A DNA stretch of 64,000 nt, taken from a phage. Shown here piece after piece: positions 10,718-61,555 of the stretch. Numbering within the stretch: the first letter of the stretch is position 1; each line of letters opens with the position of its first letter. Below the pieces are notes generated by a model. The model did not search any database and was not told the origin of the DNA. It saw only the letters and a program-made list of their open reading frames with translations. Position numbers and translations under genes: made by a program. The stretch is from the sequence record OZ346158.1. One strand, given 5' to 3'.

Positions 10718-10907
10718 GCTTAAATCTGCATGGAACATCGCTGTGGGGGATGAGATCCGCATCCCAGGTGGAAAGACCATTATGAAGATATCACGTATCG
10801 AGTATGAAGGTGATCGTGTATTTCATATCTTTGCAGAAGATGGTCGAGAAATTTATATACAGGCAGGCTCTCACATCTATATCAGTAAGAAAGGGGACGA
10901 CAAATGA
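10704..10907 (+). CDS. hypothetical protein
   Basis: ORF with overlapping start. Confidence 0.45.
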   Translation: MQMFKLKSAWNIAVGDEIRIPGGKTIMKISRIEYEGDRVFHIFAEDGREIYIQAGSHIYISKKGDDK

Positions 10908-11236
10908 CAGAGATCATCGTTTCAACTGCAGGGTATGTATTCCTGACAATCATTGCGTTGGCTATTCTGGTGGCGGTGTATGGATTTGTTATCCTGCCTA
11001 TTCTTGAGACATTTAGCTTGTGTCGGTGTTGGAGAAAAGCTTACGGACCACAACCGTGGAAAGACTGGTTTCATTTGGTGCGTATAGCGTTCTCTTATGC
11101 CTATGATCACTCCAGCAGTGCATGCGTAACCGGGTACCATGCCTACAACTGGAACTGGGAAGGGCTTGGGAGATGGACTGTTACAAAAACTATACCCTTA
11201 CGGTTGTATAAAGGAAAGAACACACTGGGAGCCTGA
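10904..11236 (+). CDS. putative membrane protein
   Basis: Hydrophobic N-terminal segment VFLTIIALAILVAVYGFVILPIL. Confidence 0.45.
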   Translation: MTEIIVSTAGYVFLTIIALAILVAVYGFVILPILETFSLCRCWRKAYGPQPWKDWFHLVRIAFSYAYDHSSSACVTGYHAYNWNWEGLGRWTVTKTIPLRLYKGKNTLGA

Positions 11237-11544
11237 TATTTTAAGTTATCAGATTGCCAGAGATCAGGAGGATTTCTAAAATGGATTTCCTCCTTTTGAT
11301 ATTTTACCTACCAGGATATTTTAAAATCCTTAGAAAATCAGAAAATGGATCGAAAACTAAAATGGATTTTTCAGAGCAGGCACGACGAGATGAACCACTC
11401 ATCCTATCGTCTGCACCATATTCCAGACCACCATTACAGATTTCCCGCACATGCTCACATCCTTCTACTAGAACTTCCCCCACTTACCCTTGACCTTTTA
11501 TAGTAATAATCCAACCACTACCTTGAAGTTGTGGCGCAGCTTTC

Positions 11545-11720
11545 CAAGTACTCGATCTGTTTTTCGTTTCAAAGATTTAATTTTCTGAAAATTTTTCTCG
11601 ATAAATTTCTCAGTACTCGATCTGTTTTTCGTTTTCTGAATCGGATTTTCTGGAAATCGTTCCGGCTCTCGACCTGAAATTTTTGGGGACGAAATCGATT
11701 TTTCGTTTTCAGAAATGGAT
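11545..11720. repeat. Direct repeats (25-nt unit cagtactcgatctgtttttcgtttt x2 plus degenerate copies) in non-coding region
   Basis: Identical 25-mers at 11545-11569 and 11611-11635; related atcgatttttcgttttc at about 11693. Confidence 0.8.
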
Positions 11721-11839
11721 TTTTAAAATTTCTATATGGGAATATTTTAGTGGATACTATTTTATAGGAAATTGTTACGGAGGGTAATTAGCGTGCTAAT
11801 TAAATTTATTAAATGCGAGGAGTTCTCATTTAGAATTTT

Positions 11840-12050
11840 GAATGATAATCATTCTCGTTTGCAGAATAACGGGCAGGCCCGGTGATTGTCTCCCGGCCCC
11901 TACTGCCCCGGCTTGTTATTATAGTAACACACAGGACAAAGAAAGCAAGAAGTTTTTGCATAAATTTTTAGACGATAATGATAATCGTTCTCATTTCATG
12001 CAGCGCCCATCCCCGGTGGTTGTCTCCCCCGTCACCGGTGCCTGCCGTCC
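11840..12050. repeat. Two direct copies of a ~60-bp unit (gataatc..ttctc..gcag ... ccggtgRttgtctccc)
   Basis: Units at about 11840-11901 and 11972-12048; the 16-mer ccggtgattgtctccc recurs inverted at 21016-21031. Confidence 0.75.
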
Positions 12051-12238
12051 TTTCAATAGGTATATTTTGCCACCTGGCGGGGCCGCTGTCAACACTTTTC
12101 AAAAAAAAAATTCTAACCTGATGCGCTGACCGCTGCAACCTGGCAGGGCCTAACTGACCAGGTAGGAGAGAATGAAGGCTTGCAAACCTGGTGGGCCTAT
12201 GCTATAGGATAGGTAACAATTGAAGAGGAGGTACAAAA

Positions 12239-12415
12239 ATGGAAGGTAATATGATCCCCCTGGAAAATGTAGCTATTAATGACGCTGAGGCTATCGCCCT
12301 GGTTGAAAAGGCTATGGCGGGAGCGTTGGAACATAAAGAAGAGTACGAAAAAATGGTGGTTAACCTGGCAGGGGCGGCGGCTGGAGAATTCTACCCAAAA
12401 AATAATTTTAACTAA
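12239..12415 (+). CDS. hypothetical small protein (58 aa)
   Basis: Strong SD gaagaggagg 8 nt before ATG. Confidence 0.5.
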   Translation: MEGNMIPLENVAINDAEAIALVEKAMAGALEHKEEYEKMVVNLAGAAAGEFYPKNNFN

Positions 12416-18768: not shown

Positions 18769-18976
18769 GGCCCCTGGCAGGGCCTGCAGCGATATAATCA
18801 CATAAAGGCTATGCGGTTGCATAGCCTTTATTATTTTGGCGTTACAGCGGCCCCCAAGGCGCTTAAAAAAATTTTTAAAGAAGTACTTGCATCAAGTCCT
18901 ACAATATGGATAATAAAGGGTGTCGGGGGGGCGGTGAGGCCTCCAATCATTAACCGGATAGATAGGAGTTAAAACC

Positions 18977-22328: not shown

Positions 22329-22356
22329 AAGGGGCTTAAAGGCCCCTTTCTTTTTG
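22329..22356 (+). terminator. intrinsic terminator closing the + strand block
   Basis: aaggggc-ttaaag-gcccctt followed by TCTTTTTG. Confidence 0.7.
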
Positions 22357-23123
22357 TCTGCTCTTCTCCTACCATAAACGGCCCTACCTGGCAAGTGGAA
22401 TAATTGACTAGCCATCAATCCCACATACTGTACAAATATACATGGAAAATAACTATTGCATAATTTTTCATTGTGTGGTAGCAAGTCCATTTTTACCCGT
22501 TTTCTCTCCCAAAAGTGCACGTAATGCCGCTATTGCACAAATTTTAACCTGATGCACATCTCCAATATCTTGTCAACAACTAAAAATCTTTATAAGTCAT
22601 ACACTTACACAGCATCGAAAGCGTGTTCTACGCGAAAAATCGAGTATAACTATAGCCGCCAGATCTCAGAATTCACGTACGCACGCCATTCTATAGCCTG
22701 CAAAGTATTTATTCCAACCACAGAATAACGGAATAGTCAATACCTGCATAAAATAATTATTCGTGTAAACTGCATAACATAAATCAGCTCAGGTGTCAAC
22801 ATTTTTCGTAAACAGTCCGAAATTATCACGATGAGTTATCATAAACAGAGAAATCTTTAGTCGTCTAATGTTTACTGTACATTACTATACTGACTGGAAT
22901 CATTAGATGACTAATACAATAGAACAAATTAATAATGTAATTATTTTACCTGTAACAATAAGGCAACTATGCAAACGAATGGCATGGCGCGACGGAGTCG
23001 CGACATAATATAAAAGCAGTAACCATCACCCCCGTGATAGTTTGTCTGCAAACTATTAATCAGATCATAGTTGCCTTGTATTTAGTTAATCATGACATAA
23101 CAAGCAAGGCAACTATAGATATA

Positions 23124-23381
23124 CTAAACCATAGCTTCAAAAGGAGTCATGAACGAATAAACGGCATCATCATCTGCTTCAGGGAATGCTCCCAAAGACT
23201 TCATATCTGAACCCTTGACAAATACAAGGTTTTGATCAAAGGCTTCTTGGGGGTCAATCCGATACATATTTCGTAGAATATCGCTTACCTCCTCATCAAG
23301 AGGTGAGTATGCTGTGCACGTTTTTCCGATCAAGCTTTGAGAATCAGGGTATCCACCTGAAGTTTTAAAATAAACAATCAT
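23124..23381 (-). CDS. hypothetical protein
   Basis: ORF at end of - strand block. Confidence 0.5.
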   Translation of the reverse strand: MIVYFKTSGGYPDSQSLIGKTCTAYSPLDEEVSDILRNMYRIDPQEAFDQNLVFVKGSDMKSLGAFPEADDDAVYSFMTPFEAMV

Positions 23382-23472
23382 ATAGTATCACCTCTGGTAA
23401 GAGATTGGGATTCCTTTCCCACAAATAATTACAAATCTTCCTTATCGAGGAAGTATGCTAATCCAAGCAGGA

Positions 23473-23742
23473 TTATTCCTCTACAATCTCATACACATCA
23501 GGAGTTACAATCAATTCTTCTCCGTTACCCGGTGCAACAAACACCACCAAACCTTCAGGTGTGTGCTTTTTAGCCATCTCGATAACATCTTCTCGCAGAG
23601 CTGGCTCCATCAGATCAAAACCTTCACCCAGGGCATCACGAACCACCTTCATATAGTCCACTGGTTGTGCTTCAACAATCATGCCTTCAACCAGTCCACA
23701 GTTTTTGTCTGCCAGCTCAGTTTTGAATAATTTAATTTTCAT
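23473..23742 (-). CDS. small protein, distant member of MKVK..EIVEE paralog family
   Basis: MKIKL N-terminus and EIVEE C-terminus shared with 25243/28892 genes. Confidence 0.5.
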   Translation of the reverse strand: MKIKLFKTELADKNCGLVEGMIVEAQPVDYMKVVRDALGEGFDLMEPALREDVIEMAKKHTPEGLVVFVAPGNGEELIVTPDVYEIVEE

Positions 23743-23879
23743 TTAGAGGTCTCCTCAATTATTTGATATTAATAGCCGTAACCTAACACATTAACTACAA
23801 CTGCGATTGCAAACATAATTTCAAAGCATGCAATCTCTACATTTGGGACTAATTTCTTAATCACACCCATTGTAGCACC

Positions 23880-24197
23880 TCATTTTCCAAAGTCAATCTT
23901 TACTTTGCCTTTCCCCTTACCTTTCTTTCCACCGCATTTAGCCAGCTGACGTGCTGCAACATCTACCATACGGTCAGTTGCCTCGTAAGCATCACTACCT
24001 TTAGCCTTGGCAATAACTTCTTTTCCAGAATTGTCAAAAATGAACGCCATAACTTCCTGGTGATCATTTTCAACTTTTACACTCACACGTGCATAGTTGG
24101 CAGAGGGGTGCAAACGCTCCAGTTTAGACATTTTGTTGGAAATGAAAGACACCATACCTTCAGTGATTTCTACGTTGCCAGTGATTTCAATTTGCAT
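23880..24197 (-). CDS. ribosome hibernation promoting factor / RaiA (S30AE family) homolog
   Basis: MQIEITGNVEITEGM...KLERL...VSVKVE and ...GSDAYEATDRMVDVAARQLAK closely parallel bacterial HPF (MQLNITGNNVEITEAL...KLARQL). Confidence 0.8.
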   Translation of the reverse strand: MQIEITGNVEITEGMVSFISNKMSKLERLHPSANYARVSVKVENDHQEVMAFIFDNSGKEVIAKAKGSDAYEATDRMVDVAARQLAKCGGKKGKGKGKVKIDFGK

Positions 24198-24279
24198 AAC
24201 GTGTTCCTTTTAAAGAAGAGGGAACCAAACCCTCTTTGAAAACAATGATACTAAATCTGAAGCGTTGTGTCAACAGTTT

Positions 24280-24570
24280 TTACAGATTGTTGTCGATAGT
24301 TTTTAAAATATCCACAGCAAGATCTGCCATTTTTCGAACATACTCTGCAAACTCAACAGGATCCTTGATCAAAGAATTCACAGGGTCGTACCCTAGAGCG
24401 TTCAAAATGGCTGCAGCATCTACAACCTTCTCATCATTTGCGAAGATCTCTCCATCAAACTTGTAGGTCCATTTTGAGTCAATCTTGGCAGGGAAGGATT
24501 GGTCAACGCTTGTTACACCATCCTTTTTAAACGCTCCGGTGTTATCAGTGTCCAGAACTAAATCCATCAT
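24280..24570 (-). CDS. hypothetical protein
   Basis: ORF. Confidence 0.5.
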   Translation of the reverse strand: MMDLVLDTDNTGAFKKDGVTSVDQSFPAKIDSKWTYKFDGEIFANDEKVVDAAAILNALGYDPVNSLIKDPVEFAEYVRKMADLAVDILKTIDNNL

Positions 24571-24587
24571 GTTAGTACCCCACTGTT

Positions 24588-24986
24588 TCAGTTTAGCTTT
24601 TCTTCAACAACCCCATAGCTCGGGACAGAGTCAAGAGCTTTCTGGTTTAAAAGTGGTGTAGCAGAATCTGCAAACGGTGTCCAAGTTTTTGTTCTGGCAT
24701 TCCAGTAATGCTTCACTCTGGAATCTGGATGCACTATAACAAAAACTTTTTCACTTGTCAACACATTAATTTCTTCTACACCCTTGCTGATAATTTCTCC
24801 GTCATAGCCCCCAGTCTGGTATCCTTCGTACCAGGTTCTTGCATAGGCATAGCCAGCTTGCCAGCATGCAGCCTCCTCCGAGGTGGAGACTACGTAGAAG
24901 TCTTTCTCAAATTCTGGAATACGCCCTTGCTTTATGCTCCAAGCTCCGCGAATTTTCATTGTAACTTTGAACAGTTTATTTTTCAC
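24588..24986 (-). CDS. hypothetical protein
   Basis: ORF. Confidence 0.5.
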   Translation of the reverse strand: MKNKLFKVTMKIRGAWSIKQGRIPEFEKDFYVVSTSEEAACWQAGYAYARTWYEGYQTGGYDGEIISKGVEEINVLTSEKVFVIVHPDSRVKHYWNARTKTWTPFADSATPLLNQKALDSVPSYGVVEEKLN

Positions 24987-24998
24987 AACGGTTACCCA

Positions 24999-25253
24999 TC
25001 ACAGCTCTACAATATTTGCATCTGACCCTACCCCAAAGGCATAATAGGACTCTTCCCCGAAATAATATTCAGGTGCACCAGCGGTGATCAGGTCTGCTCC
25101 TAAGATAAACACTACGTTGTGGCCTACATAACTGTGATGTTGCCGAACAGGATCATCCCACGGCAACCCTTCAAAGTATACCGCAGGAACGACCTTTCCC
25201 TTCAGGAAGGATTGTCCCAAGTAGACGTTAGAATCAAGAATTTTAACCTTCAT
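24999..25253 (-). CDS. small protein, MKVK-LD/LIAAGA paralog family
   Basis: MKVKILDSNVYLGQ...GADLITAGA. Confidence 0.55.
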   Translation of the reverse strand: MKVKILDSNVYLGQSFLKGKVVPAVYFEGLPWDDPVRQHHSYVGHNVVFILGADLITAGAPEYYFGEESYYAFGVGSDANIVEL

Positions 25254-25470
25254 GATTGTCCTCCACTATCTCTACATCCTCACCTAGGGCAAAGTTGTAG
25301 GTCCACTGACTGTCAAAGCATTCCTGAGATGCACCAGCGGCAATAAGATCTGCCCCTTTTATTTTTAAAAGGTCGGGGTAATCTTCGTTAGGGACAGCAG
25401 TAAACACTTTCCCCACTAAGGGCTCCTGACCAATATAGAAGCTCGAATCTAAAACTTTAACTTTCATCAA
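25243..25470 (-). CDS. small protein, MKVK-LD/LIAAGA paralog family
   Basis: MKVKVLDSSFYIGQ...GADLIAAGA...EIVED. Confidence 0.55.
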   Translation of the reverse strand: MMKVKVLDSSFYIGQEPLVGKVFTAVPNEDYPDLLKIKGADLIAAGASQECFDSQWTYNFALGEDVEIVEDNHEG

Positions 25471-60742: not shown

Positions 60743-60817
60743 GCCCTGTTAGCTTAGTGGATAAAGCAGCGGCCTTCTAAGCCGTTGACACTGGTTCGAG
60801 TCCAGTACGGGGTGCCA
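60743..60817 (+). tRNA. tRNA-Arg (anticodon UCU)
   Basis: Hand-folded cloverleaf: acceptor gccctgt/acggggt, anticodon loop cuUCUaa, T-loop ttcgagt, encoded CCA. Confidence 0.85.
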
Positions 60818-60821
60818 AATT

Positions 60822-60908
60822 GGGGAGTTATCCCGTAGAGGTAGCGGTGTAGACTGTAAATCTATTGTCATTGCGACTCGGGTGGTTCGACTCCACCACT
60901 CCCCACCA
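60822..60908 (+). tRNA. tRNA-Tyr (anticodon GUA), long variable arm
   Basis: Acceptor ggggagt/actcccc, anticodon loop ctGTAaa, T-loop ttcgact, CCA. Confidence 0.85.
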
Positions 60909-61022
60909 AATTTATATTTTTAGATGCATAAATAATACAGATAATGGCATTGATATTTATCGTCGTTTATACTAGTCACTAACTGCTCGAAAATCAGTGT
61001 CATTATCAGTATAATTTATAAA

Positions 61023-61113
61023 GGAGGGTAGGGAGCAATGGTGCTCAAGCGGTCTTGAAAACCGTCCCGTTGAGGATGACTCGATGATGGTTCGATTCCA
61101 TTACTCTCCGCCA
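61023..61113 (+). tRNA. tRNA-Ser (anticodon UGA), long variable arm
   Basis: Acceptor ggagggt/actctcc, anticodon loop ctTGAaa, T-loop ttcgatt, CCA. Confidence 0.8.
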
Positions 61114-61211
61114 CATTGTTGACCTTGTAATTAAGCGAAAGCCGGAAGCAGAACCGGATTATCAAATGTTACAGTCGTCATCGCCGACTAGCAACATGGT
61201 CAACATACTGA

Positions 61212-61308
61212 GCTAGGTAAGCCCTTTGGCAAGGGCGAGGATTTTTAATCCTGAAAATAGACGAGGTAGTCGTTGAATACATAGGTGGTTCGATTCCATC
61301 ACCTAGCA
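61212..61308 (+). tRNA. atypical tRNA-like gene (possible tRNA-Lys UUU with about 30-nt variable region)
   Basis: Perfect 7-bp acceptor gctaggt/acctagc, D-arm gccc..gggc, T-loop ttcgatt; anticodon arm imperfect; 97 nt. Confidence 0.4.
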
Positions 61309-61315
61309 CCTTTTT

Positions 61316-61388
61316 GCTGATGTAGCACAATCGGTAGTGCAATTGATTTGTAATCAATAGGTTGTAGGTTCAAGTCCTGCCATCAGCA
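61316..61388 (+). tRNA. tRNA-Thr (anticodon UGU)
   Basis: Acceptor gctgatg/catcagc, anticodon stem attga/tcaat, loop ttTGTaa, T-loop ttcaagt. Confidence 0.85.
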
Positions 61389-61392
61389 CCAA

Positions 61393-61467
61393 GGCCCTGT
61401 AGCTGGAAGGTTCAAGCAAGCGACTCATAATCGCCAGACGGTGGTTCAATTCCACCCAGGGCCACCA
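61393..61467 (+). tRNA. tRNA-Met/Ile2 (anticodon CAU)
   Basis: Acceptor ggccctg/cagggcc, anticodon loop ctCATaa, T-loop ttcaatt, CCA. Confidence 0.85.
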
Positions 61468-61478
61468 AATAGTAAATA

Positions 61479-61555
61479 CTCCGCGTAGCTCAGCTTGGTA
61501 GAGCGCCTGATTTGGGATCAGGAGGTCGAGTGTTCGAATCACTCCGTGGAGACCA
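61479..61555 (+). tRNA. tRNA-Pro (anticodon UGG)
   Basis: D-arm tagctcagcttggtagagc, anticodon loop ttTGGga, T-loop ttcgaat, CCA. Confidence 0.85.

Follow-up and report, generated by a model that had tools for sequence, protein, structure and literature searches.

Why would a phage keep, at the boundary of its early gene block, about one kilobase of DNA that encodes no protein? We addressed this question for positions 11,237 to 12,238 of a 64,000-nt stretch of phage DNA (record OZ346158.1, hereafter the window), a 1,002-nt interval flanked by the plus-strand open reading frames (ORFs) 10904-11236 and 12239-12415. A total of 122 phage records match the interval at 80-99% identity. Nearly all belong to Vequintavirus, the rV5-like myophages of Escherichia coli, and the source phage is likewise a Vequintavirus. 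The rV5 genome paper labels one region as "non-coding", leaves it unexplained and could not place the replication origin. We report that the interval is a strongly conserved control region that evolves more slowly than the adjacent genes. Its core, in the best-supported description, is a predicted duplicated module, composed of a promoter, a hairpin and an operator for the host ferric uptake regulator (Fur), that faces an AT-rich repeat block. We tentatively favour, at somewhat less than an even chance, a role for this region as an iron- and Fur-gated control module heading the early gene block, i.e. a cis-acting, iron-dependent transcription gate.

Ten members of the genus were aligned and identity was then computed per segment. 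Mean identity reaches 0.91-0.97 over 11541-12095 and 0.94 over 11266-11370 (84 of 106 columns invariant), versus 0.74-0.77 in the flanking coding DNA, so that about 650 nt of non-coding DNA are more constrained than the neighbouring genes. The remaining segments are looser, with a mean identity of 0.71 for 11371-11540 and of 0.83 for 12096-12238, where 80 gap columns and many indels are found. The initial annotation, made from the letters alone, had proposed that the interval bounds the early gene block and is non-coding, functional and dense in repeats, and both the repeats and the conservation bear this out. Its inventory was sound for the repeats but left unnoticed the most informative features, namely the predicted Fur operators, the leftward promoters and the hairpins.

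The conservation extends beyond the genus. A sensitive search with 11760-12238 matched about 11800-11949 at 70-88% identity, mostly in unannotated DNA of many other genera, including Phapecoctavirus, Mydovirus, Certrevirus, Seunavirus, Henunavirus, Serratia and Citrobacter phages, and an Aeromonas Plateaulakevirus. Starting instead from the protein encoded upstream, a search for related loci gave only two. Alignments of thirteen lineages gave a common layout, which reads from left to right as GATATTT and AAATGG repeats, one to three TCTCGATCGnTTTTTC units, between one and four palindromic boxes (spaced by about 29 bp if there are several), a hairpin with the conserved loop GGTGwTTGTCTC and a second GC-rich module. 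In the rV5 group, the latter is replaced by a second copy of the box and hairpin. This layout recurs across the Vequintavirinae, in the Stephanstirmvirinae and, in part, in the Aeromonas phage. In the window, the duplicated module comprises the following features:

11838-11861, unstranded: predicted Fur operator A, matching 15 of the 19 positions of the Fur consensus, with the 7-1-7 core TGATAATcATTCTCG at 11843-11857.
11868-11915, unstranded: GC-rich hairpin module A, GGGCAG (11871-11876) facing CTGCCC (11903-11908), inner stem CCGG/CCGG, loop GGTGATTGTCTC (11881-11892).
11921-11948, minus strand: predicted leftward sigma-70 promoter P(-)2, TTGCTT (11948-11943), 16-nt spacer, TACTAT (11926-11921), invariant in the genus.
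11974-11993, unstranded: predicted Fur operator B, GATAATGATAATCGTTCTC, matching 17 of the 19 consensus positions (11974-11992), with the 7-1-7 core at 11979-11993.
11998-12050, unstranded: GC-rich hairpin module B, a diverged copy of module A, loop GGTGGTTGTCTC (12015-12026).
12064-12092, minus strand: predicted leftward sigma-70 promoter P(-)1, TTGACA (12092-12087), 17-nt spacer, CAAAAT (12069-12064), with a TG extended -10.

The boxes were scored against the 19-bp E. coli Fur consensus GATAATGATAATCATTATC and against the minimal dimer site, the 7-1-7 inverted repeat TGATAATnATTATCA. With up to three mismatches, the consensus is matched three times in the 64-kb window, versus 0.03 expected. 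Both boxes agree with the 7-1-7 repeat at 12 of 14 positions and with its phage-type form TGAKAATnATTMTCA at 13 of 14, boxes of other genera reaching 13 of 14 for the former. Box A is invariant within the genus and box B is conserved. Over 11843-11861, box A is identical at all 19 positions to a single chromosomal site present in 3973 of 5426 complete E. coli genomes. This site lies 45-63 nt upstream of mntH and adjoins the palindrome AAACATAGCAAAGGCTATGTTT, which we take to be the MntR site. Chen et al. had predicted a two-site Fur cluster at -56 of mntH (PMC2189734). A second search of E. coli with a TGAGAAT-type box returned just nine weak matches. An acquisition of the whole module from E. 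coli was considered and rejected, the 311-nt core having no match in this species beyond the shared 19-nt operator.

In bacterial genomes, a 22-mer of the phage family, AATGAKAATCATTCTCRTTTGC, is present at 69 loci. These span many phyla, with about twenty species of Legionella and several genomes of Gallionella among them. Of the four genomic contexts checked, three are linked to iron. In Legionella pneumophila, the 22-mer precedes the gene of an IucA/IucC-FhuF siderophore synthetase by 43 nt; in Gallionella, it coincides with the start of a FUR-family gene; and in Paenibacillus, it falls within a FecCD/ABC transport cluster. In the fourth, it flanks a DUF2325 gene. Among phages, one to four tandem boxes occupy the same place in eight other sampled Vequintavirinae phages (five named genera), two Stephanstirmvirinae and one Aeromonas Plateaulakevirus. 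The 22-mer is also found at 30 IMG/VR loci, about half of which share nothing else with the element. Two unrelated metagenomic phage contigs carry tandem boxes that recur about every 29-30 bp within long stretches of non-coding DNA: L034 (1805-1890) has three identical 30-bp copies directly upstream of two strong rightward sigma-70 promoters, whereas in L044 (6850-6960) four boxes are accompanied, within a non-coding region of 1.6 kb, by five GTGTTAACAC repeats and a long (TA)n tract. The presence of the same boxes in unrelated contigs argues for a binding factor common to many hosts. We infer by sequence that boxes A and B are operators occupied by the host Fur.

The phage boxes belong to the same GATAATGATAATCATTATC/7-1-7 palindrome class as the 19-bp enterobacterial Fur operators of the E. 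coli mntH, aerobactin and ryhB promoters, with which they also share an arrangement in multi-site clusters. The enterobacterial sites overlap with a 6-bp offset, however, whereas the phage boxes are non-overlapping and 29 bp or, in this phage, 136 bp apart. They also differ in belonging to a strictly virulent phage, in following the best promoters instead of covering a strong -35/-10 pair, and in having no iron gene nearby. The use of host Fur by a phage genome has counterparts in temperate phages, where Fur regulates stx1 and sitABCD of lambdoid prophages, a Fur box being reported upstream of the sit operons in lambdoid coliphages (PMC6969025). There, a cargo or virulence gene is placed in the host regulon, whereas here the boxes stand in the own conserved control region of a lytic phage.

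Unbiased sigma-70 scoring was applied to both strands of the thirteen lineages. The best and most consistently placed promoters are on the minus strand. Counted rightward from the last box, they stand at about 98-101 nt and about 243-266 nt; they combine conserved hexamers with GC-rich spacers that vary. P(-)1 scores highest on either strand in the window segment. Its homologues, found in every lineage at the larger distance from the Fur box, combine TTGACA, TTGACG or TTGCAA with TATACT, CATAAT or TATTCT over 17-18 nt, while those of P(-)2, at the smaller distance, combine TTGCAA, TTGATC or TTGACC with TATATT, TATTAT or GATAAT over 16-17 nt. The spacer of P(-)1 is variable, GC-rich and palindromic. 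Directly upstream of P(-)1, at the position of an UP element, lies an A10/T10 tract that may act like one; the A10 run noticed initially does exist, at 12101-12110. Both promoters point left, via a hairpin into a Fur box and on to the AT-rich block 11760-11540.

The hairpin modules A and B form a duplicated unit with a register of 134-136 nt, and the link between box and hairpin is fixed at 8-10 nt in every Vequintavirinae genus sampled. Across genera, the GGTGwTTGTCTC loop of module A is constant and its stems vary (CCGG/CCGG, GGGG/CCCC or GCG/CGC). In the closing stem ATAGCGGG/CCCGCTAT, G:C to G.U changes recur and speak for the minus strand; the folding energy of module A is no better than that of shuffled sequences. 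Module B folds on the minus strand with -20.1 kcal/mol (z = -2.36). At its place, other genera carry a different conserved GC-rich module, whose hairpin G.U pairs favour the plus strand. A structured RNA from the hairpin modules, on one strand or the other, is thus plausible from these patterns. Rfam covariance models, including those for RyhB-type small RNAs, gave only chance-level matches in the window region and four related loci, and a search for trans targets of the conserved loop within the window likewise gave matches at chance level.

The module faces, on its left, DNA with further repeats, and the rest of the interval is organized as follows:

11266-11272/11288-11294, extending to 11306, plus strand: hairpin AGGAGGA/TCCTCCT followed by TTTTGATATTTT, putative intrinsic terminator of the upstream plus-strand operon.
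11235-11370, unstranded: conserved AT-rich block 1, with three GATATTTTA (11235, 11298, 11315) and three AAAATGGAT (11278, 11342, 11359).
11371-11540, unstranded: unconstrained spacer, 48% GC, with frameshifting indels.
11541-11760, unstranded: AT-rich block (68% AT, 44% T on the plus strand) with three units of 65-74 nt, each with CTCGATCtGTTTTTCg.
12096-12238, unstranded: variable stretch, with the A10/T10 tract, CCTGGYRGGGCC copies at 12138 and 12186, a weak plus-strand promoter and a Shine-Dalgarno (SD) sequence.
12180-12208, plus strand: predicted weak promoter TTGCAA-17-TATAGG, within the variable stretch.
12225-12231, plus strand: predicted SD sequence GAGGAGG for the first early gene, whose ATG is at 12239.

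The 11266-11306 hairpin folds as RNA with -15 kcal/mol (z = -2.46), shows a compensatory change in slur16 (AGGAGAA/TTCTCCT) and, in its Gotham-type form, has a G.U pair that works on the plus strand only; it probably serves the upstream operon as an intrinsic terminator. Other genera also have the GATATTT and AAATGG repeats of block 1. The mean genus identity of the 11541-11760 block is 0.91, and the other Vequintavirinae genera sampled carry one to three copies of TCTCGATCGnTTTTTC at the corresponding position (three in PVP-SE1, and two each in Mydo, KpS11, Kashira and F1M1E).

The repeats first noticed here hold up on inspection, with minor adjustments. The two units of roughly 60 bp are copies of 57 nt, 77% identical, at 11541-11597 and 11606-11662, and are followed by a third, degenerate copy at 11677-11723. 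An exact repeat reported within them as a pair of 25-mers at 11545-11569 and 11611-11635 is real but spans only 23 nt (AGTACTCGATCTGTTTTTCGTTT, at 11547-11569 and 11612-11634). Tandem Repeats Finder detected nothing but a 12-nt micro-repeat. The repetition of ACCTGG(C/T)(A/G)GGGCC was also confirmed: the motif is exact at 12072, 12138 and 19262, differs at one position at 12363 and 18772, and differs at two at 12186. Enrichment of the ACCTGGYRGGGCC motif amounts to nine matches at up to two mismatches versus 1.96 expected, a number that none of 100 shuffles attained. Together with one at 22380 on the minus strand, these CCTGGYRGGGCC copies form small GC hairpins; those at 18772 and 19262 directly follow stop codons, and that at 12072 lies within the P(-)1 spacer. 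Their number differs among relatives, phiWec189 being deleted between two copies, and the promoter spacer of PVP-SE1 holds the similar CCTGGCGGGG. Repeated non-coding elements of changeable copy number are also known in a related Pectobacterium phage of the same group, PhiTE, whose pseudo-ToxI mimics an RNA antitoxin. Those are 36-nt head-to-tail repeats with no sequence similarity to the interval, and a type III antitoxin mimic was rejected: the spacing here is 65-74 nt, without a tandem arrangement, versus about 34-40 nt head-to-tail, and the PhiTE locus lies elsewhere in the genome of that phage.

How could these parts work together? In the iron-gate reading, the control region would divide the upstream plus-strand operon from the terminal block of small early genes, and would consist, from left to right, of the terminator of that operon, the two AT-rich repeat blocks and the tandemly duplicated module. 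Read on the minus strand, each module copy would place a sigma-70 promoter before a GC-rich hairpin of about 50 nt and a high-affinity Fur operator 70-85 nt downstream. When iron is replete, Fe2+-Fur bound to both operators would form a switchable barrier to RNA polymerase arriving from the leftward promoters, and would also repress the weak, box-overlapping promoters that face right. Under iron scarcity, the departure of Fur would let leftward transcripts enter the AT-rich repeats and would free the transcription that runs right, toward the first early gene. An early decision of the phage would thus be coupled to the iron status of the host. We infer the direction and ends of the transcripts, as well as the downstream consequence.

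Several observations weigh against such a gate. Where plus-strand promoters coincide with the boxes (TTGAAT-18-CAGAAT and TTGCAT-18-GATAAT), they are weak (8 of 12) and their conservation does not extend to every genus, so that classical Fur repression is not demonstrated. A box 70-85 nt downstream of a strong minus-strand promoter is an unusual geometry for Fur, and this geometry is not universal, because the array of L034 precedes promoters that face right. Only one box is present in PVP-SE1, and likewise in Hena1. Hairpin energies are mostly no better than those of shuffled sequences (z-scores from -0.06 to -3.2), the strand asymmetry of folding is small (sums of -197 and -186 kcal/mol), and consensus folding of both strands with alifold gave weak energies and covariation near zero. 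The literature searched held nothing relevant on Fur boxes, Fur decoys or transcription start sites in these phages. Finally, Fur-like boxes within the terminal repeat of relatives point to a role at the DNA level. In Gotham (L002), these are three looser palindromes, TGGGAATaCTTCTCA, TGAGAATaCCTATCA and TGAGAACtGTTATCA, at 9-29 and 128-164 of L002, one of which is followed by ACGGGCA, as in the module of the interval.

The involvement of iron can be stated more broadly than the gate. This virulent phage family probably reads or manipulates the iron status of its host. A wider idea is possible, though we regard it as doubtful: arrays of consensus-grade operators for host Fur would recur as a module, so far unrecognised, in the genomes of virulent phages. 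Through them, these phages would sense iron and so gate an early event such as the priming of replication or early transcription, or else would titrate Fur during genome amplification and thereby reprogram the host iron regulon, like a natural Fur titration assay; here the arrays considered are those of rV5-, PVP-SE1-, CR3- and phAPEC8-like phages, of an Aeromonas phage and of unrelated metagenomic phages.

Among the alternatives, the one that survives best, while still unlikely, is that the interval is a transcription-primed or transcription-activated replication origin, at which the leftward promoters would fire into 11760-11540 and their RNA open or prime the DNA, Fur serving as an accessory gate. 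Such a mechanism is known from the primary origin of T7 (phi1.1A/1.1B and an AT-rich region), from oriF and oriG of T4, and from ColE1, where RNA opens or primes the DNA. The interval resembles the T7 and T4 origins in its tandem promoters directed into AT-rich repeats, and the iteron origin of lambda in its palindromic repeats adjoining AT-rich DNA: two tandem promoters face a 68% AT block with three conserved direct-repeat units as well as several further repeat sets, and the same architecture is found across genera. In five other genera (loci L010, L011, L013, L014 and L016), a perfect DnaA box, TTATACACA, stands on the minus strand at a fixed place in the hairpin module, about 70 nt to the right of the last Fur box, where it overlaps a plus-strand TATAAT. 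The L044 array, with its GTGTTAACAC repeats and (TA)n tract, also fits an origin, and the rV5 paper, which did not locate the origin, reports primase and helicase homologues common with podoviruses.

Unlike these models, the phage considered here shows neither an initiator nor a DnaA box, and its promoters are of the host sigma-70 type. The window region holds no DnaA box, the TTATACACA box being absent from the rV5 group. No initiator or regulator gene was found next to the region, only families without known function and DUF7170. Most other genera have a small minus-strand ORF directly right of the element (e.g. L009 1794-1976 and L010 1826-2011), whose product is a DUF7170 protein in PVP-SE1 and Mydo and an unrelated small protein in others; none is present in the window. 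The resemblance of the iterons to the oriC 13-mer was dismissed as non-specific, since matches at up to two mismatches number 56 in the window and are equally common elsewhere in it. GC skew is unidirectional from position 1 to about 22000 of the window and merely tracks the direction of transcription, and the phasing of T tracts in 11541-11760 is weak, with a TTT autocorrelation peak of 0.19 at lags 20-21. We know of no precedent for a Fur array at an origin.

An improbable alternative dispenses with local control altogether: the boxes could act as a sponge, in which operators amplified to hundreds of genome copies would deplete the Fur pool and derepress the host iron regulon, the local promoters being incidental. 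A single Fur box on a multicopy plasmid suffices to derepress a Fur-controlled reporter, as exploited in the Fur titration assay (FURTA). The boxes are near-ideal palindromes at a non-overlapping spacing of about 29-30 bp, their number varies from one to four between relatives, and arrays occur in unrelated phages with different neighbouring sequence, the three identical copies of L034 being a sign of recent amplification and L044 having four. The additional Fur-like boxes in the terminal repeat of relatives would add to such a sponge. However, the fixed box position and the constant link to the hairpin in Vequintavirinae would be needless for a pure sponge, the single boxes of PVP-SE1 and Hena1 fit it poorly, and the benefit within one short lytic cycle is unproven.

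The palindromes might also be merely Fur-like, and serve as operators or iterons for a dimeric DNA-binding protein encoded by the phage, such as a repressor, an initiator or a terminase partner. Tandem palindromes at a regular 29-bp spacing do resemble phage operator or iteron arrays, and the half-sites of the Gotham terminal repeat match the Fur 7-1-7 only loosely, which would suit a phage protein handling DNA. We nevertheless give this explanation little credence, as the 19/19 identity with the mntH site and the exact 22-mer by iron genes would then be coincidental, the same box occurs in unrelated phage contigs without common neighbouring sequence, and no DNA-binding gene was found adjoining the region.

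It is highly improbable that the interval acts as a stop signal for DNA injection comparable to the first-step transfer of T5, arresting entry after the terminal early genes. In relatives with mapped ends, its distance from the left terminus is 10.9-11.9 kb (about 8% of 137 kb), and it bounds some 35 small genes with sigma-70 promoters, all transcribed toward that end. In T5, the stop region is contained in a repeat of about 10 kb and the first-step-transfer fraction is similar to this 8%; like the interval, the T5 stop region is large, conserved, repeat-rich and non-coding, and bounds the terminal early genes. The phages considered here differ in their tiny terminal repeat, just 459 bp, and in their virion type, with a contractile tail, for which we know of no report of two-step transfer.

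A packaging site or physical genome end, also envisaged in the initial annotation, has next to no probability here: the repeat density and the phiWec189 record, which starts in Fur box B and ends in Fur box A with a 148-nt overlap, could speak for it, but this overlap resembles an assembly break at the duplicated unit, and the mapped terminal repeats of relatives, about 11 kb rightward, largely refute it. Vequintavirus Gotham has 459-bp direct terminal repeats with a fixed packaging start (PMC7471380); these are kept in 120 relatives, several records beginning exactly there. Gotham 685-1491 aligns to 23127-22323 of the window, so that the ends adjoin another non-coding region at a strand switch, and the Gotham homologue of the interval is internal, at about 10.9-11.9 kb.

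This second large non-coding region, at 22330-23130 of the window, is rich in GTAAAC/GTTTAC-type repeats, adjoins the terminal repeat in relatives and is the likelier packaging or terminus region. At 23127/23128, about 6.4 kb present in every relative, including the 459-bp terminal repeat, are missing. The sequence to the right of 23127 maps about 6 kb further on in JeffSchatz and bov10K2 and no database record spans the junction, which could be a natural deletion, an artefact of joined ends or a misassembly. Over 23127-25300, relatives annotate a gene for a ribosome hibernation factor (sigma-54 modulation/HPF-like), already reported for rV5-like phages. Farther right, ARAGORN predicts a 99-nt tRNA-like gene with a four-base anticodon (atcc) at 61212-61310, inside the tRNA cluster 60743-61555.

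The interval is non-coding, as first proposed. ORF 11254-11493 has an in-frame ATG at 11281 behind a good SD sequence (AGGAGG), but indels of 1, 1 and 2 nt interrupt it in four of nine relatives, with a net +1 indel in FV3. ORF 11842-12129, labelled a hypothetical protein in the GenBank records of JeffSchatz, FV3 and Gotham, has no SD sequence and carries 1-nt deletions in four of nine relatives. These frameshifts in close relatives led us to reject a protein-coding reading of both ORFs, and the ORFs annotated in the interval are probably annotation artefacts. Homologous annotated ORFs over conserved non-coding elements (bas55_0098-0100, FV3_00182/183 and F10B_0202/0203) are likewise frameshifted among relatives. 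Whatever the mechanism, annotation stands to be corrected, since three to five GenBank "hypothetical proteins" at this locus are probably not genes.

The interval also offers, again independently of mechanism, a defined candidate locus for the still unknown replication origin of these phages. The rV5-, phAPEC8- and PVP-SE1-like phages are broad-host-range candidates for therapy and are active where iron is limited, as in the gut, in urine and in blood. Should their control region respond to Fur, iron availability would alter phage replication, with a bearing on dosing and efficacy. If true, this would be the first known strictly lytic phage family with a host metal sensor in its core regulation, or with a DNA decoy for a global regulator.

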